Assembly: GCA_031372565.1 (NCBI GenBank)
Contig: JANMLN010000098.1
Location: forward strand, 1-55,786
Source of the DNA: Gemmatimonadota bacterium
GTDB taxonomy: Bacteria > Gemmatimonadota > Gemmatimonadetes > Gemmatimonadales > Gemmatimonadaceae
Direction of reading: 5' to 3'
Length of the DNA: 55,786 nucleotides
The number at the start of each line of letters is the position of its first letter. Position 1 is the first letter of the stretch. Of this stretch, positions 3,214 to 42,290 are shown piece by piece. Under the pieces are notes generated by a model. It saw only the letters and a list, made by a program, of their open reading frames with translations. It had not been told where the DNA came from and searched no databases. Position numbers and translations under genes: made by a program.

Positions 3214-3361
3214 CGTCGTCTGAGCGAAGCGTCGTGTGAGCGAAGCGAAGGACCTGCTTGTCGTCCTGAGCGAAGCGAAGGACCTGCTTTGGGTTCAGCA
3301 GGAACAGCACAAGCAGGTCCTTCGACTCCGGGCCGCTGCGCGGCCCTTCGCTCAGGACGAC
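3214..3361. repeat. Palindromic repeat cluster 2: partial/forward copies 3214-3289, 21-bp spacer, long-variant reverse copy 3311-3361
   Basis: GTCGTCCTGAGCGAAGCGAAGGACCTGCTT copies and an inverted long variant. Confidence 0.92.
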
Positions 3362-13540: not shown

Positions 13541-15331
13541 CTATTTGGCTTCCCCAGCGGACCGCACCACCCCATCCCACGCCACCCCACGCACCGCGCG
13601 CCCCGGCTTGGCCCCCGTGTGCTTCCCATCGCGCCACACCGCCACGCCGTTCACGAACACGTCGCGCACGCCGGCCGCGATCTGGTGCGGCTTCTCGAAC
13701 GTCGCCTTGTCGATGACCGTGGCCGGATCGAAGATCACGATGTCGGCAAAGTTGCCCTCCTTGAGCATGCCGCGATCGCGGAGCCCGAGGATCTGCGCGG
13801 TGGACCAGGTCATCTTGCGCACCGCATCCTCGAGTGTGAGCACCTTGTCGTCGCGGCCGTACTTGCCCAGCACGCGCGCGAAGCTGCCGTACGAGCGCGG
13901 ATGCACGAGCGCCGTCGTCGTATCGGGGTCGAAGCCGCCGGCGTCGCTGCCGATCACCACCCACGGCCGCGCGATCATCGCGGCCACGTTCGCTTCCGAC
14001 ATGCCGAAGGTGACCTTGCCGAGCGCGTTCTTCTCGCCAACTGTGAGCGCGATGATGGCGTCCACCCAGTCGGCTCTAAGCGCCTTGGCGATTTCGTCGA
14101 GTCTCTTGCCCTCGAACTGCTTCCACTCCGGCTTCTTGAACCCTGCGATCTGGAACGCGTGCGGCGGGTTGTCCTGGCACAGGCTCGGCGCACCGACGCT
14201 TAGGTCGGTCATCTCCTTCCGGATGCGGACTTTAAGCGACGCGTTCTGCAGTCGCTCGAGAAGCTTGCCGTCGGCGTGCACCCAGCCCGGAATGCAGCTC
14301 GAGAGGTTGTTGCCCGAGGCGGGGTAGGGGTACATGGACGCCTTCACGTCCTGCCCCGCGAGGCGCGCCGAGTCGATCTTGGCGATGGCGGGCGCGGCGA
14401 GGGCCCAGTTGCGCTGCCCGGCCGCCTTGAAGTGGTAGATGACCACGGGGACGCCGCCGTCCTTGCCGATCTTGATGGCCTCGTCCATCGCGCCCAGCAG
14501 CCCGCCTTCCTCGCCGCGGATGTGCGAGATGTAGGTGCCATGGAGCGGCGCCATCGCCTTGGCGAGCTCGACGAGTTCGCTGGTGCCCGCGTAGCTCCCC
14601 GGCGGATAGATGAGCGCGGTCGAGATGCCGAACGCGCCGTCGGTCATCGCGTGGCGCACCACGGCGCGCATCGCGTCGAGCGCCGCCGCCGGCGCAGTGC
14701 CCTCGGTGCGCCCCATCGCGTACGCGCGCACCGTGGTGGCGCCCAGGTAGCTGCCGACGTTCACCGAGTTGCCGTGCTTCTCCATGGCCGCGAGCCAGAG
14801 CCCGAAGCCGTGATCGCCGCGGAAGGTCTTCACCTGCGCGCGCATGAGCGCATCGTCCGGATCGCCGCCGTTGTACAGCGAATCGAGCCGCTCGTTCGAC
14901 GGCGCCGGCGTGGTGGCCTCGCCGAGGATCTCGGTAGTGACGCCTTGGGACACCTTGCCGATGACGCGTCCGTCGGCGAAGAGGAGCGAGTTCCAGGAGT
15001 GGGATTGGATGTCGATGAAGCCTGGGGCGACGACGAGGCCCTTGGCGTCGACTTTCTCCTTGGTGGTGGCTTCGGCGAGTGCGCCGAGTGGGGCGATGGT
15101 GCCGATGCGGGCTCCGCGGATACCGAGGTCGCCGTAGTAGTAGGGGTTGCCGGTGCCGTCGACGATTCGGGCGTTGGTGATGACGAGGTCGTAGGGGGCG
15201 GCCATGGGGTCGCGGGGGCCGCAGGCGGTGGCAATCGCGACGATCAGCAGCACCACGGCAGACCGGAGCAAGAGCATACCGGCGTGCGCCGGTGCCGGGT
15301 TCATTCCGTCCTCACTGGCGAGTGTGTACAC
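13541..15331 (-). CDS. N-acyl-D-amino-acid deacylase family amidohydrolase (possible lipoprotein)
   Basis: 'VAPGFIDIQSHS', 'HPRSYGSFARVLG', 'ADIVIFDP'; AGGAGG before GTG; 'ATAC' lipobox-like. Confidence 0.9.
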   Translation of the reverse strand: MYTLASEDGMNPAPAHAGMLLLRSAVVLLIVAIATACGPRDPMAAPYDLVITNARIVDGTGNPYYYGDLGIRGARIGTIAPLGALAEATTKEKVDAKGLVVAPGFIDIQSHSWNSLLFADGRVIGKVSQGVTTEILGEATTPAPSNERLDSLYNGGDPDDALMRAQVKTFRGDHGFGLWLAAMEKHGNSVNVGSYLGATTVRAYAMGRTEGTAPAAALDAMRAVVRHAMTDGAFGISTALIYPPGSYAGTSELVELAKAMAPLHGTYISHIRGEEGGLLGAMDEAIKIGKDGGVPVVIYHFKAAGQRNWALAAPAIAKIDSARLAGQDVKASMYPYPASGNNLSSCIPGWVHADGKLLERLQNASLKVRIRKEMTDLSVGAPSLCQDNPPHAFQIAGFKKPEWKQFEGKRLDEIAKALRADWVDAIIALTVGEKNALGKVTFGMSEANVAAMIARPWVVIGSDAGGFDPDTTTALVHPRSYGSFARVLGKYGRDDKVLTLEDAVRKMTWSTAQILGLRDRGMLKEGNFADIVIFDPATVIDKATFEKPHQIAAGVRDVFVNGVAVWRDGKHTGAKPGRAVRGVAWDGVVRSAGEAK

Positions 15332-15571
15332 TCAAACCTCCTGCTGCATTGCAAGGATTCAAACGCACGGCTGATCCGGGCTCGTCCTAGCTACCCCTCT
15401 TCAAGCGCGCCGGCCCCAAGCCGATGGTCCGGCGCGCACCTTCCACCGAAGGGCTCCGAGGTCAACGACAATCGGCACCGAGCCTGCTCTGGTCCTTGCA
15501 GCGACGCGACATAGCCATTCCGCCCGATCTTTCGATCTCGCCAATCCAGGAATACCGATGACATTGAGTCC

Positions 15572-18500
15572 TTACCGGTAGACCTCGTCAAGCCGCCAGA
15601 CCAACTGCAAGGCTTCGGTCCAGCCTGCGTCCGCAAATACATCAAGCAGCGTCAGCAAGTGCTCCAATCCGGCTCCGCTCGCAACGTCCCCACGGAAATC
15701 CGCAAGCACCGTATCGACAAGCCGCACAACATCCTCGACAGCCAGAGCATCAAGATGATACCTGCCTGGAACAGCCGCCACAGTCACTGCGGCGGCAAGG
15801 CCGAGGACACCCACGGGGTCATATGGAAGAACAAGGTTGAGGAAGCCCATGAACCGATGTGCGGTACTTGGCAGGAGGCCGCCTCCATCACTTGGCCTCC
15901 CGAAGGCAACAATTGCATCGAGGATTGGCCGAGTCTTCCGGTAATAGTCTCCGAGCGAAACGCGCGGTGACGCAGCCTCGTCACCCTCCGAATCGTATGA
16001 AGCGCCTCTAGGAGTGGCGTTGAAGTAAACGCGATTCACGAGCAGTTCAACGAGGGCATAGGCCGGTCGCACGCTAGCATCCGCGTCCGCTTCCGAGTTC
16101 GTCGGTCGCGTAACAACCTCGCGAAGCTTGGAAAGAAGTACCTGAATCCACTCGACCGCGCGCTCTTCCGCAAGACGTTGATCTGGCGTGGGAGGCCTCT
16201 CGGGGCGCACCTCGTTGATCGCGCGAAACGCGAATTCAGATACCAAGTCGCCGCGGGTGGAGAAATGATCCACTGCGGATGCGACCTCTTCCCACGCCCA
16301 CTTCTCGTCCAACCGGCAAGAAAAGTACGCCAGCCAATTGGCGGACTCTCTCAGGAGAGTCGCACTCTCGGAGCGCAGAGCCCGCGGCAACAGCCTCCGA
16401 ACCGTATCGTCCCTTCGGGCGTCTCGATAGTCGACATGACTCAGCGTAACGAGGAGCTGCGACACAATGCTCTCGGTCGCCTCGTTGACTGTCCGGTCCT
16501 CAACAATCTCCCAGAACGTTTCGGGTGCAGGGGAGATCAAGAGGCGTGCCCACTGGATCACGATGAACCTGTCGGATGGAACGGGCGACTTGGAGAGTCG
16601 TACGAGCGCATCACTCGCGGCTGGATCGAATGAAGTGGACAACAGGTATGCAAGGCCGCTCACGGCTTCTGTTCGCGGCGTTGGGGACCAGGCTGGTGTC
16701 TCGAAGGAGCGACTCGAAGCCTCTTCGCTGGCCGGGAAGCCCGCCCCGAGCAGCAGCACCTTCGCGCACAAGACGCGAAGTGGACGTGCACTTGTCGGCC
16801 GCGTCTTTGCAAGCGTTGACGCCGCCTCCGCAAGCTTCGTCCAAACGAACTCGTGCAGCAACGTCTCAACTGGCGGCGACATCGTAGCGGCCTCGACATC
16901 CTCCCGGAAGGTGCCAACGAACGCGTCAACGGCCGCAGAGTCGGGGACTGAATTCCGCCAGCGTTCAGCGAAGGCGCTCGCACGCGCAGCAAGGTCTCTC
17001 AGATCGCGATTCACCGGATCGGCGAGCTGCACTCCGGACTCGATGAGCCAGTCGTCGGTTGTATACTCTCGCGAGGAGGACGTGAACCGAACGAGGGGCT
17101 CGTTTGCGCTATACTCGCCCTTCGCCGCAAGCACCATCGCGCGTTCACGTGCCCACGGCGTCGCCAAGAGTCTCGACGGAATACGTGCGAGCAGTCTATC
17201 GCGAGCGCGTTCCGAGACAGTTCGGGACCGGTCGACGTCTGAATCTGCGCTCTCAGCCTCGGCGGATGAAGGGCGGGAGTCCGCCTCCCACCTTTGCGGA
17301 AGGGTGAACAGGGAGTTCTCAAGCGCTGCCCGCTGTGCTGGCTCCCAGTAGTCCGCCGCCGACTCGATAAAGGAACCGAGAGCATAGATCGTGTCGACTC
17401 CGACCTGCACTGGCGCAGCCAACGCGAGCTCATGCAGTGGCCGCGCATAGCGATACGGCGCCTTGGCGCCGATGTCGAGCAACGAGGACCACGTCGAGGC
17501 AGCTAAGCACTCATCAGCGATTGCTGCGATGGCGTCGGTGGGGTCAAGTGTGCAGTCGTCTCCCGAGAGGTATGAAGCAGCATCCGCGCAAATTGCGAGC
17601 ACATCATCCCGGTGCACGCCCTGAAACCAGGACACGCTCAGGTCAGGCAAATAGCGGCGCTGCTTTCCGAGAAAGATAAAGGACTCCTCCATCTCACCTA
17701 ATGTGGCGCCCTCCCGCAAGTAGGGAAGTAACTGCTCCTTTATGGCGTATCGAGAGAGGAGTGCAAACGAGAGACGAACGGCCTCGAGAGGGTGCGCTAG
17801 AAGTACGTCGGGAAAGGCGGATCGAAGAGAATAGTGCAGCATCTCGAAGTCCTGCCGCCGCGTACTCGTTAGCGCCAGAACAATCCCCCCGAAATCCGTC
17901 TTCTCGTTGCTCAACTCACGGTGGCCAAACACGGCACGATAGACATCGACCACTAGTGCAATGTCGAAGCGGGACAATGCTCCAACGTCGTGGCAGAGAG
18001 AGCGAAAGTACTCCAACGGAAACGAGGGATGCGTCAGGAGAGTCAGCAGCCGCCGTAGAAGCGAAGCGGACGCAGTACGGTCGGTGGAGAAGCTGCGAAT
18101 GACCAGAGGCACTCCGTGCACGGCGCCGAAGGCGTCCATCCATCGGGGATTCTCCGAGCGGGCTGTCCAAGCCCAGTCCAACAAGCGTCTCGCGGCAACT
18201 CCGCAGCTGGCAAGCGCGTCCGGCTGCGGATGCCTCTCAAGATCGCGTAAGAGTTGAGTCAATAGCGCTCCGAGCTCCCACCCAAAAGTCGGTGCGGGAG
18301 CAAGTGCAAGCTCAGCCGAGATCTCCGCCCATACGGCCGCAGACTGCGGTGGTGCGAAACGGAGGGCTTGGAGAGTACGCAGGACAGCCTGGGACGCGAC
18401 CTCGGGCGTGCGCTGCAGCCCCTGAAGGAGCGGGGCGAGCTCGACTGCGCCACGACAGTCCCGAGCAATCACAGTTGGCGGAATGATCCGAGCCACCAAG

Positions 18501-19618
18501 CGGATTCCAACGTCTTCACACGAGAGCAGGCGAAGGAAGCACGACCAGAAGCGATCCCTTTCAGCGTGCCAAAGGCGCGCGAAGTAGTAGGTGATGCTTG
18601 GGCGTAGGAAGAGCGGGCGCGAGAGGTCGTCCGTGAGAAACGATATGAGACGCTCGACGTCTTCGTCTAGAGTAAGAACTGAGACAGCGTAGTCAAAGAG
18701 AATGTTGTGTGAGAAACGAATGCGACCTTCGCCCGAACCTGAATGAGCGAGCACCTCGTCGCTTAGCAGAGCTGCCAGTGACTGAGGCTGGCCGGGCGAG
18801 CTGTCATCGGGCGGCGCCACAGTCAGGCGTCGCTCGCGAACCATGCCAGCGGCCAAAGCGCGAAGGAGGCTGAGGCGAGCGAGAGAGTCCGGTGTGCCGG
18901 TGACGTAGCGCTCCCAGTACCGAGCGAGGAGTTGAACCTCAGAGGACAGTGCGGACAGCTCCGCGGATGGGTTCGCACGGAGAATGCGCTCCACCAGCCA
19001 GAGGTGAAAGGGAATTCGAAGGAGGCGGCGAAAGCCGGCACTAGTTGCATCATGGATCGCAGCCAGAGCCGGGAGGGCGGAGAGTGCGTCTGTTACTTCG
19101 TCCGGCGAAAGCTCTGGGATCTGGAAATGGCGTGAGGAAAAGCGCGCATCGACGTACTCCGGCGGAGCAGGAGCGGCGCGGTTGGAGAATGCCCTGTGTA
19201 AGGTCAGCGATTTGCTAGCATCATAGGTGCGGGCGCTAGCCAATACAGTCCATCCCGCCGGTGCAGAACGGATCGCAGCAAGAATCAATTGCAGCACACG
19301 CGCGCGCGTGTCATCGCTACGGGCAGCGTCAAAGCCATCAAAGATCAGCACGCCCACGGGCGCGCTCGCGTACAGCTCCGTGAGGGCGGCAGCGAAAGTC
19401 GTCGGATACCCTAGAACAAGGCGCAGCTCTTCCTCACTCGCGCCTCCAAGCTCCTCAACAGGAATGAAGAGATAACGCACCTCAGTACCGTCGAAGGATG
19501 CCGCAAGTGAGGCGAGAGTGTAACTCTTGCCGACACCGGGGACACCGATCACCAAACCGTGGCCTGATAGTGCGAAGGCGCGAAGCGCCGCAAGGAGCGC
19601 CGATCTCTCAATCCTCAT
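15572..19618 (-). CDS. Large STAND/NACHT-like P-loop NTPase with helical C-terminal region (Avs-like)
   Basis: Walker A 'GVPGVGKS' near the N-terminus, Walker B 'VLIFDGFD', 'IPFHL', 'FSHNILFDY'; ~1350 aa; overlaps SIR2 gene end. Confidence 0.75.
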   Translation of the reverse strand: MRIERSALLAALRAFALSGHGLVIGVPGVGKSYTLASLAASFDGTEVRYLFIPVEELGGASEEELRLVLGYPTTFAAALTELYASAPVGVLIFDGFDAARSDDTRARVLQLILAAIRSAPAGWTVLASARTYDASKSLTLHRAFSNRAAPAPPEYVDARFSSRHFQIPELSPDEVTDALSALPALAAIHDATSAGFRRLLRIPFHLWLVERILRANPSAELSALSSEVQLLARYWERYVTGTPDSLARLSLLRALAAGMVRERRLTVAPPDDSSPGQPQSLAALLSDEVLAHSGSGEGRIRFSHNILFDYAVSVLTLDEDVERLISFLTDDLSRPLFLRPSITYYFARLWHAERDRFWSCFLRLLSCEDVGIRLVARIIPPTVIARDCRGAVELAPLLQGLQRTPEVASQAVLRTLQALRFAPPQSAAVWAEISAELALAPAPTFGWELGALLTQLLRDLERHPQPDALASCGVAARRLLDWAWTARSENPRWMDAFGAVHGVPLVIRSFSTDRTASASLLRRLLTLLTHPSFPLEYFRSLCHDVGALSRFDIALVVDVYRAVFGHRELSNEKTDFGGIVLALTSTRRQDFEMLHYSLRSAFPDVLLAHPLEAVRLSFALLSRYAIKEQLLPYLREGATLGEMEESFIFLGKQRRYLPDLSVSWFQGVHRDDVLAICADAASYLSGDDCTLDPTDAIAAIADECLAASTWSSLLDIGAKAPYRYARPLHELALAAPVQVGVDTIYALGSFIESAADYWEPAQRAALENSLFTLPQRWEADSRPSSAEAESADSDVDRSRTVSERARDRLLARIPSRLLATPWARERAMVLAAKGEYSANEPLVRFTSSSREYTTDDWLIESGVQLADPVNRDLRDLAARASAFAERWRNSVPDSAAVDAFVGTFREDVEAATMSPPVETLLHEFVWTKLAEAASTLAKTRPTSARPLRVLCAKVLLLGAGFPASEEASSRSFETPAWSPTPRTEAVSGLAYLLSTSFDPAASDALVRLSKSPVPSDRFIVIQWARLLISPAPETFWEIVEDRTVNEATESIVSQLLVTLSHVDYRDARRDDTVRRLLPRALRSESATLLRESANWLAYFSCRLDEKWAWEEVASAVDHFSTRGDLVSEFAFRAINEVRPERPPTPDQRLAEERAVEWIQVLLSKLREVVTRPTNSEADADASVRPAYALVELLVNRVYFNATPRGASYDSEGDEAASPRVSLGDYYRKTRPILDAIVAFGRPSDGGGLLPSTAHRFMGFLNLVLPYDPVGVLGLAAAVTVAAVPGRYHLDALAVEDVVRLVDTVLADFRGDVASGAGLEHLLTLLDVFADAGWTEALQLVWRLDEVYR

Positions 19619-20792
19619 GGCGCACTCTCCGCGTGAGGGCAAACTTGTTCGTCTTTGCTACCCAGTCCGAAGTGGACTGCGATGCGCCTGTTGCCGGCGG
19701 CGCCGAGGAATCTGGCGAAGGAGCTGGCGAAGAAGGAGGAGAGGTCTTGCTTTGGACCTCCCTCGAGATGCGGTCCACTAGCCTATACAGTTCGTCATGG
19801 GCTTCAGGCTGCCCGTCTGCGCGATAGAATATCGTCTCGACTCCGTACTCGCTCTTGAGTTGCTTGGCTCTGTCGAGTTGTGCCGACGCGTTCTGTGCGT
19901 AGATCGGCAGCAGAGCGTAATGCGCTGAAGTTCCAAATGTCCAGGTTGCGCTACTGACGTCTCTGAGCACCCGCGCGAGGTACGGATCGTCCATGCTGAA
20001 TCCGACGAAGATCAGGCGCCGAGTCGCCATGAGGCCGGCTGTGAGCATATAGAGCGGCCGCGGCGCGCGCTGACTCCAGTTCGCCCGGGCCCTTAGCTCG
20101 GCGATCGTAAGGGTCCGCCTGAGATGCGGCTCAAGGGCAAGGGCTGTCGCTATATCGGGGGGTACAAGGTCGGTATTGTCGCTGATGTTGGATGGGAAAC
20201 CATAGGCATCTAGGTACGATCGTTCAGTGAGCACGATGCTGCTGGGCTGTGTCACCACGCCATGCAAGTGGATGACATGCTCCAAGGCTGAGTGTGGGCG
20301 GCGTTCAGATAGAGCCCGAATCGATGGAGCGACTTGTGATGTGTCAGGCGGATGCCAGATTGTCACACTCTTCGGGATAGACGCCCCCCCATGAGCATCT
20401 TTGTAGGCAACTTCGGCTACGATGTCATAATTCGTGGTGAGTATCCCTTGAAACGGAAGCCCAACTAACTGACGATGGAACGGGATGAGTCTGTCTCTCA
20501 CGTCCGACTCACGTGACAGATAGAGGCGCTGATGGAGGGCCCGATTAAACTCATCCGGGCCCAAGCTGTCAGAGATCTCCTGAGCGTACGCCAAGAAATC
20601 GGCTGGAGGTATTGGCTCTTCGCGAGCGACAAAGCCAGGGGCCAAGGCGGTCGCCCTTTTGGCGAGCTCGCGAAGCAGGCGGGGCCAAGAATCGAACTGC
20701 GCGGCGATGCTAAAGCCAGCTCCCAGCACCAAGAGCGCTTGCTGGCTCGCGATTAGGTCTACGAGTTCGGCAAGACGTTGGTCGCGTTCCAA
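19608..20792 (-). CDS. SIR2-like (SIR2_2) protein, putative NADase effector
   Basis: 'LVLGAGFS', 'ILTTNYD', 'IHLHG', 'IFVGFSMDDPY'. Confidence 0.85.
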   Translation of the reverse strand: MERDQRLAELVDLIASQQALLVLGAGFSIAAQFDSWPRLLRELAKRATALAPGFVAREEPIPPADFLAYAQEISDSLGPDEFNRALHQRLYLSRESDVRDRLIPFHRQLVGLPFQGILTTNYDIVAEVAYKDAHGGASIPKSVTIWHPPDTSQVAPSIRALSERRPHSALEHVIHLHGVVTQPSSIVLTERSYLDAYGFPSNISDNTDLVPPDIATALALEPHLRRTLTIAELRARANWSQRAPRPLYMLTAGLMATRRLIFVGFSMDDPYLARVLRDVSSATWTFGTSAHYALLPIYAQNASAQLDRAKQLKSEYGVETIFYRADGQPEAHDELYRLVDRISREVQSKTSPPSSPAPSPDSSAPPATGASQSTSDWVAKTNKFALTRRVRHED

Positions 20793-21054
20793 CAGGCGCT
20801 CAGAAGAAAGCGCTTCAACTGGGATCTCGGAGGGCAGAGACTAGTCTCCTCGCAGCGGGCCCTGTGCGCGACGCGCAGGCAGGTCAGTGAAATGCTCCGA
20901 CTCTATCGAGTGCGACGAAAGGCCTTACCGGCAGTACCACGTGGGATGGCGTAAGCCACGCGAGTCAGAAACAAGGTGAGGCCGGCGAGCACGAAAAGCT
21001 GTTGCGGGTCGGACTGGGGTCGGTAAACGAGGGTGTCCACCTGAAACGGAGCTG

Positions 21055-22260
21055 TCACGCGATGCCGAGGCGTGAACCCACCCTCACAAACGCCCCCACC
21101 GCCCGCTCCAAATCCTCCCGCGAGTGCGCCGCACTCACCTGACACCGCACCCGCGCCTGCCCCTGCGGCACCACCGGAAACCCAAACCCGGTCACGAAGA
21201 TCCCCTCTTCAAGCAGCGCATCCGACATCGCAATCGCGTCCTTCGTCTCCCCAATGATGATCGGGACGATCGGCGTCTCCCCAGGCAGCGGCTTGAACCC
21301 CGCCTCGACCAGCGCCGCACGGAACCACGCCGTGTTCTCATGCAGCTTGGTCACCCGCTCCGGGTGCGCCTCGATGAACTCCACGCTCTTGAGGGCGGAC
21401 GCCGCCACCGTCGGCGGTAACGCATTCGAGAACAGCTGCGGCCGCGACCGCTGATTCAGCCAGTCCGTCAGCACCGCCGGCCCCGCCACGAACCCGCCCG
21501 CCGCGCCGCCCAGCGCCTTGCCGAGTGTGGACGTGATCACGTCCACCTCGCCGATCACGCCGAAGTGCTCGGCCGTGCCGCGGCCCGTCTTGCCCAGCAC
21601 GCCGGTCGCGTGCGAGTCGTCCATCACCACGATCGCGTCGTGGTCGCGCGCGATCTGCAGGATCTCCGGCAGCTTCGCGATGCTCCCCTCCATCGAGAAC
21701 ACGCCGTCCGTCCAGATCACCCGCCGGCGCGCTCCCTTGTTGGCCTTGAGCTGCACCACCAGGTCGTCCATGTCGGAGTGCTTGTAGACGCCGGTCGTGC
21801 ACTTGGTGATCGCCTTGGCCAGGCGGATCGAGTCGATGATGGACGCGTGGTTGAGCGCGTCGCTCACCACGAAGTCCCCCTCCTGCACGATGCTCTGCGT
21901 CAGCGCCTCGTTGGCGTTCCAGCACGCCACGTAGCTGAGCGCCGATTCCGTGCCAACGAACCGCGCCAGCGCCGCCTCCAGCTCGCGGTGCACCGTGAAC
22001 GTGCCGCAGATGAAGCGCACGCTCCCCGTGCCGGCGCCGAACTGCCGAAGCCCCGCATGCCCTGCCTCGACCACGGCTGGCTCGTTCGACAACCCCAGAT
22101 AGTTGTTCGACGAGAGCACGAGGATCTCCCCCTTGCCCTCCATCTGCACGTGCGCCCCCTGCGGGCTCGACAGGTAGTTGAAGCGCTTGTAGACCTGATC
22201 GGCCTTGAGCTGGTCGATCTGGGTGGACAGCTCGGTGACGAAGCGGGCGTTGCGGGACAT
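21055..22260 (-). CDS. kbl: Glycine C-acetyltransferase (2-amino-3-ketobutyrate CoA ligase)
   Basis: 'SNNYLGL', 'SVRFICGT', 'NHASIIDSIRL', 'STLGKALGG'; near tdh. Confidence 0.93.
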   Translation of the reverse strand: MSRNARFVTELSTQIDQLKADQVYKRFNYLSSPQGAHVQMEGKGEILVLSSNNYLGLSNEPAVVEAGHAGLRQFGAGTGSVRFICGTFTVHRELEAALARFVGTESALSYVACWNANEALTQSIVQEGDFVVSDALNHASIIDSIRLAKAITKCTTGVYKHSDMDDLVVQLKANKGARRRVIWTDGVFSMEGSIAKLPEILQIARDHDAIVVMDDSHATGVLGKTGRGTAEHFGVIGEVDVITSTLGKALGGAAGGFVAGPAVLTDWLNQRSRPQLFSNALPPTVAASALKSVEFIEAHPERVTKLHENTAWFRAALVEAGFKPLPGETPIVPIIIGETKDAIAMSDALLEEGIFVTGFGFPVVPQGQARVRCQVSAAHSREDLERAVGAFVRVGSRLGIA

Positions 22261-29217: not shown

Positions 29218-29264
29218 CTCATCCTGAGCGCCCTGTCGTCCTGAGCGAAGCGAAGGACCTGCTT
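29218..29264 (+). repeat. Palindromic repeat: partial copy plus full copy 29234-29264, left of DinB gene
   Basis: TGTCGTCCTGAGCGAAGCGAAGGACCTGCTT. Confidence 0.92.
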
Positions 29265-29281: not shown

Positions 29282-29749
29282 TCACCCCCCCGCCCCTCTC
29301 CGCGCAAACAAGATGTAATCCACCGCCACCGGCTCGTGCCCGTCACGCCGCAGCAACGCGTTCACCTTGCCACGGTGGTAGTGCGCATGCATCGCCACAT
29401 GCTGCAAAATGTCGGCTTCGTCGGTGTCGAAGAGGTCGCCCTTGAGGTTCCCGTACTTGACGATGCGGTCGAGCTCAGCATCGGTCCGTCCCGACAGCAT
29501 GGCATGGAAGGTCGCGTGCAGGCGCTCGCGCTCGGCGGTCGCCTGCGAGGGCTCAAGCGCCGGAAAGACCGCGATCCGCGGCGTTTCGCTCGAGAGCCGG
29601 CACTGCCAGATGTCGTACGCGCCGAGGATGTGCGTGTACTCGCGCCAGGCATTGGCGGGGGTGCCCGCGGTCAGGAGCGCGCGCTCGAGCTCGGCGTCCG
29701 CGAGCGCGGCGTGCGCGTACAGTCGGCGGAGGAGATCGGCGGTGGACAT
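29282..29749 (-). CDS. DinB family protein
   Basis: 'HILGA..W..RL', 'DILQHVAMHAHYHRGKV..LR..G..P..DY'. Confidence 0.88.
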   Translation of the reverse strand: MSTADLLRRLYAHAALADAELERALLTAGTPANAWREYTHILGAYDIWQCRLSSETPRIAVFPALEPSQATAERERLHATFHAMLSGRTDAELDRIVKYGNLKGDLFDTDEADILQHVAMHAHYHRGKVNALLRRDGHEPVAVDYILFARRGAGG

Positions 29750-29765: not shown

Positions 29766-29795
29766 AAGCAGGTCCTTCGCTGCGCTCAGGACGAC
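29766..29795 (-). repeat. Palindromic repeat, inverted copy right of DinB gene
   Basis: AAGCAGGTCCTTCGCTGCGCTCAGGACGAC. Confidence 0.92.
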
Positions 29796-32539: not shown

Positions 32540-33328
32540 GTGCCCGAGTTGCCTGAAGTGGAGCACGCCGTGCGGAGGCTGCGAGCGTGGATCGTGGGCC
32601 GCACGGTCACGGAGGTCGCGGTGCATCACGCGTCGATCCGGCGCACGCTCGCGCCCGCGGTGCGGCGTGCCCTGGCTGGCCGAACGGTGCGCGAGGTGTC
32701 GCGGCGCGGGAAGCACCAGTTCATTCACCTCGATGATGGCCGCGTGCTCCATGTGCACTTCCGCATGACGGGCGATTGGGCGCATGTCGACGCGGGCGAG
32801 GCCGAGCCGCCGCATGTGCGGATGACGCTGTCGCTCGAGAGCGGTGCGCGCGTGCTGCTCACCGACAGTCGTGCCTTGGCGACGGCAGTGTTGCTGCGCG
32901 ATCTCGCGCCGGTGCTCGCGAAGCTCGGGCCGGAAGCGGATGACCCATCGCTCGACGGCGACACCTTCCATGCGATGCTTGCGGGCAAGTCCACCCCGAT
33001 CAAGGCGGCCCTGCTGGACCAGCGCGTGCTCGCGGGGGTTGGCAACATCTACGCGTGCGAGGCGCTGTGGCACGCGCGCGTCGATCCGCGCACGGCGGCG
33101 GGCCGGTTGTCGCGTGTGCGCGCTGCGCGCGTGCTGGACGGCGTGCGCGTGGCGCTCGGGCGTGGCCTGCGCCGCGAAGGGCGGTACGCGGACGGCGACA
33201 GCCACGAGTTTCTGGTGTATGACCGCGAGGGCGCCGCGTGTCATCATGCGTGTGGCGCGACGATCCGGCGCATCGTGCAGGCGGGGCGGAGCACGTTCTA
33301 CTGCGCGCGGTGCCAGCGGTCGTCGTAA
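32540..33328 (+). CDS. mutM: Formamidopyrimidine-DNA glycosylase
   Basis: 'MPELPEVE', 'RRGK', 'HFRMTG', 'GVGNIYACE', C-terminal Zn finger. Confidence 0.93.
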   Translation: MPELPEVEHAVRRLRAWIVGRTVTEVAVHHASIRRTLAPAVRRALAGRTVREVSRRGKHQFIHLDDGRVLHVHFRMTGDWAHVDAGEAEPPHVRMTLSLESGARVLLTDSRALATAVLLRDLAPVLAKLGPEADDPSLDGDTFHAMLAGKSTPIKAALLDQRVLAGVGNIYACEALWHARVDPRTAAGRLSRVRAARVLDGVRVALGRGLRREGRYADGDSHEFLVYDREGAACHHACGATIRRIVQAGRSTFYCARCQRSS

Positions 33329-33422
33329 GGGAAGCGAAAAACCTGCGTGTCGACCTGAGCCTGTCGTCCTGAGCGAAGCGAAGGACCTGCTTGTCGTCCT
33401 GAGCGAAGCGAAGGACCTGCTT
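33319..33422 (+). repeat. Palindromic repeats left of GIY-YIG gene: degenerate, half copy, then two tandem full copies 33362-33422
   Basis: (TGTCGTCCTGAGCGAAGCGAAGGACCTGCT)x2, period 30. Confidence 0.93.
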
Positions 33423-33499
33423 TTCTCTCCCCGCAACCCTCCGCCCCTCCGCAATCTCCCGGTACCTCCCTCCCCACCCAGCGCGCGCAGACTCCCCCC

Positions 33500-33868
33500 A
33501 TGCCGCGCACCTACTGGGTCTACATCCTCGCAAGTCGGACTCGCCGCCTCTACATCGGCGTCACCGGCAGCATTCATCGCCGACTCGCCCAGCATCGCGA
33601 CCGCCTCGGCGGGAGCGACTTCGCCGGTCGCTACCGCATGGAGCGCCTCGTGCACGCCGAACCGTTTGGGCGGCCGGAGGATGCGATCCGACGGGAGAAG
33701 CAGCTCAAGGGGTGGGTGCGGGTGAAGAAGCTGGCGCTGATCTCGAAGAGCAATCCGACTTGGGAGGAGTTGGTGCCGTTTGAGGGGGGGAGGGGGAGGG
33801 AGGAGCAGAGGGAGAAGCAGGTCCTTCGCTTTGCTCAGGACGACAAGCGGGCTCAGGTTGACAATTAG
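33500..33868 (+). CDS. Stand-alone GIY-YIG nuclease family protein
   Basis: 'YWVYIL..LYIGVT..RRLAQH..AIRREKQLKGW.R.KK..LI...NP.W..L'; C-terminal tail reads through the right-hand repeat. Confidence 0.9.
   Translation: MPRTYWVYILASRTRRLYIGVTGSIHRRLAQHRDRLGGSDFAGRYRMERLVHAEPFGRPEDAIRREKQLKGWVRVKKLALISKSNPTWEELVPFEGGRGREEQREKQVLRFAQDDKRAQVDN
33815..33863 (-). repeat. Inverted palindromic repeat plus half copy right of the GIY-YIG core
   Basis: AAGCAGGTCCTTCGCTTTGCTCAGGACGACA..GCTCAGGTTGACA. Confidence 0.9.
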
Positions 33869-35031
33869 TCCAGCGCTTCGATCATCGCACCCTTGATGTA
33901 CCCGGTCTCGGGAATGCTCAGCACTTCCGGGTGATCACTCGGCTGCCCATAGATCGCGCGCAGCGCCAAGCGCCGCCCTGAATCCGCGGCCGCTTCCTGC
34001 AGCATGTCCAGAAAGAGCGCCTTGCTCACATGAAACGAGCAACTCGCGGTGAACAGGTGCCCGCCCGGCGCGAGAATCCGCATGGCGCGCAGGTTGACCT
34101 CCTTGTAGCCGCGCAGCGCCGCCGGCAGCGACGCCTTGCTCTTGGCAAAGGCAGGCGGGTCGAGCGCGATCGTGTCGAACCGCTCCTTCTTCCGCTCGGC
34201 CTCGCGCAACCACTCGAACGCGTCGGCCTCGACCGGCGTCATGTGCGCGAAGCCGTTGAGCGACGCGTTCTCTCGTGCCCGCGCCAGCGCCGGCGCCGAC
34301 GAATCGAGCGCAATCACCTCGCGCGCGCCGCGCGCCAGGTGCAGCGCGAACGAGCCGTGATACGCGAAGCAGTCCAGTGCGCGTCCGCAGCTCACGTGCC
34401 CGATGGCAGCACGGTTCTCGCGCTGGTCGAGGAAGGCGCCCGTCTTCTGTCCGTCCCACGGTGCGGCGAGGTAGCGCACGCCGTGCTCCTCGATCTCGAT
34501 CGTCTGCGGGACGTCGCCGCGGAGGAGCTCGACGCTCTCGATCAGTCCCTCGCGTCGCCGCAGCGCCACGTCGTTGCGCGCGAGGACCCCGGCAGGCGCA
34601 CAGACCCGCTCGATGGCGTCGACGATATCGCCGCGGCACGCCTCGAGCCCCGCGCTCATGAACTGCAGCACGATCCATTGTGCATAGCGGTCCACCACGA
34701 GCGAGGGCAATCCATCGCCTTCGCCGTGCACGAGCCGGTACGCGGTCGTGTGGCGATCCACGCCGTCGCGACGATCGAGCGCCACGCGCAGCATCCCTTC
34801 CCACCACGCGCCGTCGATGCGCGCGTTCGGGTCACGATCGAGCATCCGCAGCGAGATCTCCGACTGCGGGCTCCAGAGCGCCCACCCCAGCGCACGTCCG
34901 CTCTTCTCCCGTACCGCCACGACGCCCGGCACGGGCGACGGCGCGTCGATCACGTCCGACTTGAAGATCCACGGATGACCGCGCTGCCAGCGTCCCGCCC
35001 CGCGCCCCGAGACCACCGCCACCTCGCTCAT
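33865..35031 (-). CDS. rlmI: RlmI-like class I SAM-dependent rRNA methyltransferase
   Basis: PUA 'GHPWIF', 'GEGDGLP', 'GQKTGAFLDQRENR', 'LDPPAF'. Confidence 0.85.
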   Translation of the reverse strand: MSEVAVVSGRGAGRWQRGHPWIFKSDVIDAPSPVPGVVAVREKSGRALGWALWSPQSEISLRMLDRDPNARIDGAWWEGMLRVALDRRDGVDRHTTAYRLVHGEGDGLPSLVVDRYAQWIVLQFMSAGLEACRGDIVDAIERVCAPAGVLARNDVALRRREGLIESVELLRGDVPQTIEIEEHGVRYLAAPWDGQKTGAFLDQRENRAAIGHVSCGRALDCFAYHGSFALHLARGAREVIALDSSAPALARARENASLNGFAHMTPVEADAFEWLREAERKKERFDTIALDPPAFAKSKASLPAALRGYKEVNLRAMRILAPGGHLFTASCSFHVSKALFLDMLQEAAADSGRRLALRAIYGQPSDHPEVLSIPETGYIKGAMIEALD

Positions 35032-40559: not shown

Positions 40560-40792
40560 TGTCACGCTGAGCCATCTGTCATCCTGAGCGCAGCGAAGGA
40601 TCTGCTTGTGCAGTTCGGCGCGGGAAAGCAGGTCCTTCGCTGCGCTCAGGATGACAACAAAAGCAGGTCCTTCGCTGCGCTCAGGATGACAACGAAGCAG
40701 GTCCTTCGCTGCGCTCAGGACGACAACGAAGCAGGTCCTTCGCTGCGCTCAGGACGACAACGAAGCAGGTCCTTCGCTGCGCTCAGGACGAC
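40560..40792. repeat. Palindromic repeat cluster: half copy, forward copy 40577-40607, 18-bp spacer, five tandem reverse copies (40626, 40661, 40695, 40729, 40763)
   Basis: AAGCAGGTCCTTCGCTGCGCTCAGGA(C/T)GAC with 4-5 bp linkers. Confidence 0.95.
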
Positions 40793-42195: not shown

Positions 42196-42290
42196 GAAGG
42201 ACCTGCTTGTCGTCGCCTTGAGCGAGAAAAGCAGGTCCTTCACTTCGTTCAGGACGACAGAAGCAGGTCCTTCACTTCGTTCAGGACGAC
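42196..42290. repeat. Palindromic repeat cluster between convergent genes: partial forward copy and two reverse variant copies (42229, 42261)
   Basis: AAGCAGGTCCTTCACTTCGTTCAGGACGAC x2. Confidence 0.9.

Follow-up and report, generated by a model that had tools for sequence, protein, structure and literature searches.

Why does a small nuclease gene lie between inverted copies of a palindromic repeat, and is that repeat the substrate of the enzyme? The question is raised by a stretch of 55,786 nucleotides from a Gemmatimonadota bacterium (assembly GCA_031372565.1, contig JANMLN010000098.1, positions 1 to 55,786), here called the window, in which a gene for a GIY-YIG protein sits between mutM and an rlmI-like gene with hairpin units on either side. 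Judged from protein homology, the locus very probably belongs to the Ssn family, and would thus be a gene for a GIY-YIG endonuclease of single-stranded DNA (ssDNA) placed between inverted copies of its own GTC-tagged hairpin, an element of the kind called SRM.

A probable Ssn-family nuclease gene

Ssn proteins, as defined by Chenal et al. 2025 (Nat Commun 16:2388, PMC11893778), are single-domain GIY-YIG proteins classed as cd10448. For SsnA of N. meningitidis and three of its homologues, that paper reports binding, in ssDNA form, to the hairpin that flanks the respective gene (NTS/SRM) and a cut upstream of the GTC-tagged hairpin, with no action on duplex DNA, RNA or the reverse strand; cutting is abolished by mutating the conserved tyrosines and a predicted cofactor site. 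The window holds a GIY-YIG open reading frame (ORF) of 122 codons (33500-33868, + strand; Pfam PF01541, E 2.7e-10), the product of which is 48% identical over 86 residues (E 2e-20, pairwise BLASTP) to the N. gonorrhoeae orthologue of SsnA, a 94-aa protein fetched with the paper's ssnA_F primer and used here as the SsnA reference; the homologue criterion stated in the paper is E < 1e-10 to N. meningitidis SsnA (PMC11893778). Residues Y8, Y18 and E66 of the window protein align with Y6, Y17 and E64 of N. meningitidis SsnA, numbered according to the mutagenesis primer names in Supplementary Data 8 of the same source (PMC11893778). The conserved part of the window protein comprises residues 1-91 and is followed by a read-through tail of ~30 residues. 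The UPF0213 structure 1ZG2 matches far less well (E 7.8e-6), an NCBIfam search returned no family for the window protein, and a 77-protein tree, based on 89 columns and poorly resolved, places the Neisseria protein among homologues of the window protein. It is the 48% identity and the three aligned residues that point to an Ssn-family gene accompanied by its hairpins.

The sequence-only reading of the window had taken the GIY-YIG protein for the cognate enzyme that cuts the repeat, and the homology to SsnA supports this proposal. By analogy with its relatives, the protein would bind the folded hairpin on the GTC-tagged strand when this is single-stranded, as during replication, repair or on incoming DNA, and would cut a few nucleotides 5' of the GTC tag, with no action expected on duplex DNA, RNA or the opposite strand; we infer both the activity and the specificity for the window hairpin from homology. 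The association of gene and repeat, the hairpin-gene-hairpin layout and the comparison with repetitive extragenic palindromic (REP) and IS200 elements are already published, having appeared in 2025.

The immediate surroundings of the gene are as follows.

32540-33328: mutM, with three Fpg/MutM Pfam domains, the upstream neighbour of ssn
33319-33348, + strand: degenerate hairpin unit over the last codons and stop of mutM, 83% similar to the following unit across 42 nt
33348-33361, + strand: half-unit, 5' part only, mirrored by 33850-33863 (14 nt, 93% complementary)
33363-33392, + strand: perfect 30-nt hairpin unit (0 mismatches), for which the DNA fold gives the hairpin
33393-33422, + strand: second perfect unit (0 mismatches), directly abutting the first
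33423-33499, + strand: C/T-rich spacer and ssn leader, partly complementary to the purine-rich stretch 33787-33814
33500-33868, + strand: ssn-family gene, GIY-YIG domain at residues 5-75, similarity to SsnA up to residue 91
33815-33844, - strand: inverted hairpin unit inside the 3' tail of the ssn ORF, 1 mismatch
33850-33863, - strand: half-unit mirroring 33348-33361
33865-35031, - strand: rlmI-like gene for a methyltransferase with PUA and SAM domains, the downstream neighbour of ssn

The layout claimed for this locus was confirmed: Pfam domains of all three ORFs bear out a small stand-alone GIY-YIG gene between mutM and rlmI, the bracketing by inverted copies consists of two perfect + units before the gene and one - unit after it, and the outer half-copies do mirror each other. 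The spacers extend this symmetry, the region 33423-33499 and the purine-rich stretch 33787-33814 forming part of an inverted repeat with 65-nt arms that are 82% complementary; a C/T-rich stretch is found 3' of hairpin copies genome-wide and not only at ssn. The last ~30 codons of the ssn ORF are a read-through of the purine-rich spacer and the - hairpin, and the ORF overlaps its rlmI-like neighbour by 4 nt, tail to tail. On the other side, mutM takes its stop and its two final codons (33319-33328) from the decayed hairpin unit; the protein ends in ...CQRSS, where that of the related genome G001 ends in ...CQT.

The hairpin unit

The unit reads, in order, GTC, a 5-bp stem, GA, GC, a 3-nt loop, GC, GA, the return stem and a CTGCTT tail. 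Conservation, counted over the 439 of 451 copies in the assembly that have full flanks, reaches 96-100% at 22 positions of the 30 and nowhere drops below 88% except at the middle base of the loop. That base varies freely (A 215, C 190, G 21, T 13), the GTC tag is 99% conserved, and the base preceding the tag is T in 253 copies, C in 138, and A or G in 24 each. The first stem pair co-varies, with G-C in 388 copies and A-T in 36 against A-C in 11 and G-T in 4. Tandem sheared G-A pairs and a G-N-A triloop may stabilise the structure. The computed DNA fold is exactly the hairpin described (-3.5 kcal/mol).

The repeat population of the window and the genome

At up to 3 mismatches the window holds 14 copies, as compared with 0 in 100 shuffles. 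The earlier count of about 20 copies at six loci was slightly generous in number, and the loci come to five, or to six with 29235 and 29766 counted as two. Beyond the ssn locus, the repeat scan of the window gave these copies, listed with the gene that two of them bracket.

3260-3289, + strand: dispersed unit copy
29235-29264, + strand: dispersed unit copy, left bracket of a DinB-family gene identified by Pfam
29282-29749, - strand: DinB-family gene (PF05163, 155 aa), between + and - hairpins
29766-29795, - strand: dispersed unit copy, right bracket of the DinB-family gene
40578-40792, both strands: array of one + copy followed by five - copies, with a 34-35-nt period
42229-42290, - strand: two tandem - copies

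The array lies between two genes without a Pfam match. A further stretch of the window, 15331-21058 (~5.7 kb), has no ORF call with high G+C at third codon positions and could hold RNA genes. As had been stated from sequence alone, no transposase appeared in the window among the 40 ORFs in a Pfam scan that was not exhaustive.

The assembly (4.44 Mb in 201 contigs, 68% G+C, 95.85% complete) contains 126 exact copies of the 21-nt core and 451 at up to 3 mismatches, with 278 perfect 30-nt units. The copies group into 259 clusters, 60 of them at the ends of contigs, which implies a true copy number above these counts. Adjacent pairs within 300 nt of each other (n=192) comprise 136 co-oriented and 56 convergent pairs and 0 divergent ones, and 39 clusters are pure +- doublets with non-conserved spacers of 12-24 nt. 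For 148 clusters of uniform orientation, taken from contigs of 20 kb or longer, orientation followed neither the local GC skew (34/40 against 41/33, p 0.32), so that a replication-strand bias was rejected, nor the strand bias of the local genes (p 0.51). The assembly has one stand-alone GIY-YIG gene; PF01541 matches twice more, in a long frame of 659 aa, about the size of UvrC, and in another of 425 aa.

Some of these properties might suggest that the hairpins are general intergenic elements of gene ends, terminator-like or acting at the RNA level, and that they bracket ssn by chance. Clusters do favour convergent gene pairs, whose gaps hold 42 of the 119 classifiable clusters but make up 366 of 2337 gaps in the background (with rough gene calls), and 26 intervals of 300-1000 nt lie between successive clusters, 8 of them convergent, so that many genes are bracketed. 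Hairpin bracketing is thus not unique to ssn within this genome, and the evidence against chance comes from other genomes.

The hairpin class at other ssn loci

In ~45 of 73 loci, by a count made by eye, the motif TGAGCGNAGCGAAGG (up to 2 mismatches) is no farther than ~400 nt from the ssn homologue, the hosts including members of the Bacteroidota, Bacillota, Patescibacteria, Pseudomonadota, Chloroflexota, Acidobacteriota and Gemmatimonadota. The hairpin base, carrying variable apical parts, flanks ssn homologues of many phyla in genomes of 33-71% G+C. GTC-tagged hairpins of the window class number 149 in 64 kb near ssn as compared with 81 in the other 601 kb, which makes them ~17-fold denser within 400 nt of the gene than over the rest of the same 82 loci; repeats flanking the homologues, an enrichment that the sequence-only reading had proposed looking for, were thus found. 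Published statistics agree, Chenal et al. giving an SRM at 71% of ssnA homologue loci and on both sides at 42%, and an ssnA homologue in 81% of the genomes with >200 SRMs (PMC11893778). In the face of this recurrence, bracketing by chance is barely credible.

The stems found across genomes (ATCCT, ATTCT, ATGCT, ACCCT, GTCCT) each have their exact complement; this was a search criterion, so that stem pairing across genomes is not an independent result. Strict hairpins occur to either side of ssn at 40 loci, 21 of which have the arrangement + gene -, followed by -+ and -- (7 each) and ++ (5). As a hint at co-variation of repeat and protein phylogeny, hairpin types cluster weakly on the protein tree, with 19 label changes against a shuffled mean of 26.4 and a value as low in 1 of 200 shuffles, a suggestive result for a poorly resolved tree from which five rows with stops were dropped and in which 26 rows have no strict hairpin.

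At four loci (L067, L072, L082 and L084, from a metagenome-assembled genome of the Hyphomicrobiales and from Niabella) two hairpin types alternate in opposite orientation around ssn, as with stem ATGCT on the + strand and stem ACCCT on the - strand in Niabella, an arrangement that recalls the Y/Z alternation in the BIMEs of E. coli. Another pair of loci, L116 and L119 of two genomes in one genus (G258, G063), has flanks that are 87-95% identical around ssn cassettes that cannot be aligned, are ~590 and 910 nt long, contain different short tandem repeats and bear the hairpin tag CTC instead of GTC, which suggests either cassette replacement or very fast divergence at one site.

Co-occurrence of ssn and hairpins in relatives

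Among 41 relatives, most hairpin-rich genomes carry ssn. In a sample of 301 genomes of the phylum, an ssn match at E 1e-8 or better is found in 19 of the 22 genomes with at least 10 hairpins as against 37 of the 279 with fewer (36 of 277 without the unpublished genomes G086 and G204). Within the genus, where G000 denotes the assembly of the window, the counts are as follows.

G000: 421 hairpin copies, ssn intact
G005: 105 hairpin copies, ssn intact
G003: 118 hairpin copies, ssn remnant of ~87 nt exactly between a + and a - hairpin
G001: 99 hairpin copies, ssn not found (79% complete)
G002: 3 hairpin copies, ssn not found (85% complete)
G004: 2 hairpin copies, ssn not found (85% complete)

The ssn gene of G005, 55% identical, lies at another locus, among hairpins between an LbH-type gene and an amidase gene, and its mutM-rlmI spacer measures 120 nt and holds one decayed - copy and no gene, which is the kind of empty site that the sequence-only reading had proposed looking for in relatives. 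In G001 a different ORF lies between mutM and rlmI, and on the contigs of G003 and G004 this pair is not found side by side. With ssn elsewhere in G005 and the mutM-rlmI site variable, the position of the gene is labile.

Several observations weigh against assigning the window locus to the Ssn system. The published SRM search pattern, HGTCWYN(0-2)YYVSBRHN(0-5)WNVSBRGN(0-2)RNCYNB, which is an operational search sequence and not a property of the enzyme family (PMC11893778), matches 0 of the 451 copies and has 27 matches in the whole genome; by the operational definition of the paper, the window copies are not SRMs. Three hairpin-rich genomes (G033, G124, G193) have no match to the ssn query used, the 37 ssn-positive genomes mentioned above have few hairpins of the window class, and the sampled genomes are related, so that kinship inflates the counts and overstates their independence. 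The nearest hairpins on both sides of ssn in G005 are of - orientation. Finally, the fold energy of the hairpin is no better than that of shuffles (z -0.55, -0.70 and +0.12 for three single units), for which reason thermodynamic support was dropped; structural support for the hairpin comes from covariation only. The protein homology and the recurrence of the hairpins beside ssn in many phyla nevertheless leave Ssn membership the reading that we prefer.

Do the hairpins move?

If the window protein is an Ssn nuclease, it may still do more than cut. Doubtful, though conceivable, is the idea that Ssn copies or moves its hairpins as RAYT proteins are thought to move theirs, a role that would be compatible with Ssn identity. 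A RAYT elsewhere in the genome, which had been named as an observation that would speak for another enzyme, was looked for as PF01797 (Y1_Tnp/RAYT) and gave 0 matches in the whole assembly at its 95.85% completeness, the control search having found the domain in 6 of 14 reference genomes. The population of 278 perfect units is large and homogeneous, its 39 pure doublets and its 56 convergent pairs without a divergent one resemble REPINs, and the ssn gene is concentrated in hairpin-rich genomes, copy number within the genus tracking the gene (421 and 105 where it is intact, 118 with a remnant, 3 and 2 where none was found). The same idea is raised as a hypothesis in PMC11893778, which likens NTS-ssnA-NTS to an insertion sequence, to IS200/IS605 and to REP/BIME elements, and only hypothesises mobility. 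It also gives restriction of incoming ssDNA as the function characterised in Neisseria, which argues in the other direction.

Our own comparisons likewise count against such a role, no transposition event having been seen in the mobility tests (copies, congeners, public contigs). To our knowledge, GIY-YIG nucleases have no strand-joining chemistry. The doublet spacers are not conserved, unlike those of classical REPINs that move as a unit, and the share of perfect units is 278/421 in G000 and 34/105 in G005, both with intact ssn, the latter resembling the 30/99 of G001 and 32/118 of G003, neither of which has an intact gene. Since this share does not separate congeners with ssn from those without, decay of the hairpins in the absence of the nuclease was rejected as well.

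A different kind of mobility would have the entire hairpin-ssn-hairpin cassette behave as an element resembling an insertion sequence that landed between mutM and rlmI, the doublets being deleted derivatives akin to miniature inverted-repeat transposable elements (MITEs). The lability of ssn among congeners, including the gene-less mutM-rlmI spacer of G005, is what such an element would produce, and + gene - is indeed the commonest layout. The remnant in G003 (L010:1486-1615, contig C214) consists of a + hairpin, the last ~87 nt of ssn and a - hairpin, and is an internally deleted ssn cassette, possibly an intermediate towards a doublet. In the protein tree, Neisseria SsnA is joined (support 100/91) to the Ssn of a genome that belongs to the same family as the host of the window and has an NTS-like hairpin, which fits joint transfer of gene and hairpin. 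However, the Ssn proteins of G000, G005 and G023 group together (94/85), as vertical descent predicts, and ssn is present here in one copy per genome. In four genomes with 4-6 copies each (20 in all), DNA identity between copies of one genome does not exceed 75% and is confined to the gene, and recent transposition of the cassette was rejected because no near-identical ssn pairs occur among them. The decayed - hairpin next to rlmI at the gene-less site of G005 means that this site may have carried hairpins first. On this balance, a selfish cassette appears unlikely.

Public reads assembled as Logan contigs break at the hairpins; one contig in each of X1 and X2 covers most of ssn without differences, and none of the contigs bridges mutM to rlmI, with or without ssn. 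One joint that skips 417 includes 11 foreign letters and most likely represents a different doublet from elsewhere, so that the contigs give no evidence on excision. An attempt to place the insertion points of hairpins exactly was given up, the intergenic regions of G000, G003 and G004 (75-85% DNA identity) being too diverged to give target sites.

The DinB-family gene of the window is bracketed by hairpins in G000 and G003 and is without them in G004; G001 has, where the gene would be, a decayed +/- doublet, as if the DNA separating two convergent hairpins had been lost. With the preferred identification as an Ssn nuclease in place, a tentative and rather improbable extension is a self-maintaining nuclease-repeat system made up of Ssn and its hairpins, where cuts in single strands beside the hairpins would drive the gain of hairpins and the deletion or replacement of DNA between convergent ones. 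The pointers to it are the absence of divergent orientation among the 192 adjacent pairs, the G003 remnant trimmed exactly between hairpins, and the pattern at the DinB site. If true, such a system would be a GIY-YIG route to REPIN-like dynamics and turnover of gene cassettes, distinct from HUH transposition.

Relation to known systems

The closest counterpart of the window locus is Ssn/NTS, with which it shares a single-domain GIY-YIG protein of ~95 residues, the conserved Tyr/Tyr/Glu being kept in the window protein, a gene flanked by inverted GTC-tagged hairpins with hundreds of dispersed and mostly intergenic copies, and co-occurrence of gene and repeat across genomes (PMC11893778). The two differ in the hairpin: that of the window has the base GTC-RTCCT-GA...GA-AGGAY-C, where G/A mismatches stand in tandem, and its loop is a 3-nt G-N-A, unlike that of NTS, whose ATTCCCGCG stem is perfect (PMC11893778). 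They differ also in host, the window coming from a Gemmatimonadota genome and two Gemmatimonas rows of Supplementary Data 4 of the paper being, among the rows listed, marked as having no ssnA (PMC11893778).

A second group consists of the CGTC-tagged REPs described by Di Nocera, De Gregorio and Rocco (2013, BMC Genomics 14:522, PMC3733652), dispersed and often dimeric palindromes. These too are short palindromic repeats with (C)GTC at one end, reported without a dedicated transposase (PMC3733652). The window tag, by contrast, is mostly TGTC, the base before GTC being C in 138 of the 439 copies but T in 253, and the accessible text of PMC3733652 names no GIY-YIG partner (0 occurrences of 'GIY').

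The remaining comparison is with the REPtron, a REP/REPIN family with its RAYT, reportedly described in work of Nunvar in 2010 and of Bertels and Rainey in 2011. The likeness lies in a single-copy nuclease gene flanked by the dominant hairpin repeat of the genome, in inverted doublets, and in a largely vertical pattern within the family. Here, however, the enzyme is a GIY-YIG protein and not an HUH tyrosine transposase, PF01797 has no match in the assembly, the tag is GTC and not GTAG, the doublet spacers are variable, and mobility of the window hairpins is putative. Full-text literature searches, with figures and bioRxiv supplements outside their reach, found the hairpin core as text in no paper; they returned no paper containing both 'GIY-YIG' and 'repetitive extragenic palindromic', and nothing relevant on GIY-YIG with 'miniature inverted' elements in bacteria.

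Implications

Since the pairing of a GIY-YIG nuclease with a dispersed hairpin was published in 2025, the locus opens no new field. What is new here is a hairpin subclass that flanks ssn in many phyla and is missed by the published SRM pattern. As that pattern is blind to a subclass with ~450 copies in this genome, published counts of SRM-bearing genomes are likely underestimates. Whether and how such repeats move is a question on which the strict rule of convergent orientation, the variability of the doublet spacers and the pattern of gene loss between hairpins all have a bearing, and the window hairpin is a candidate new specificity for the ssDNA-cutting toolbox proposed by Chenal et al. (PMC11893778).

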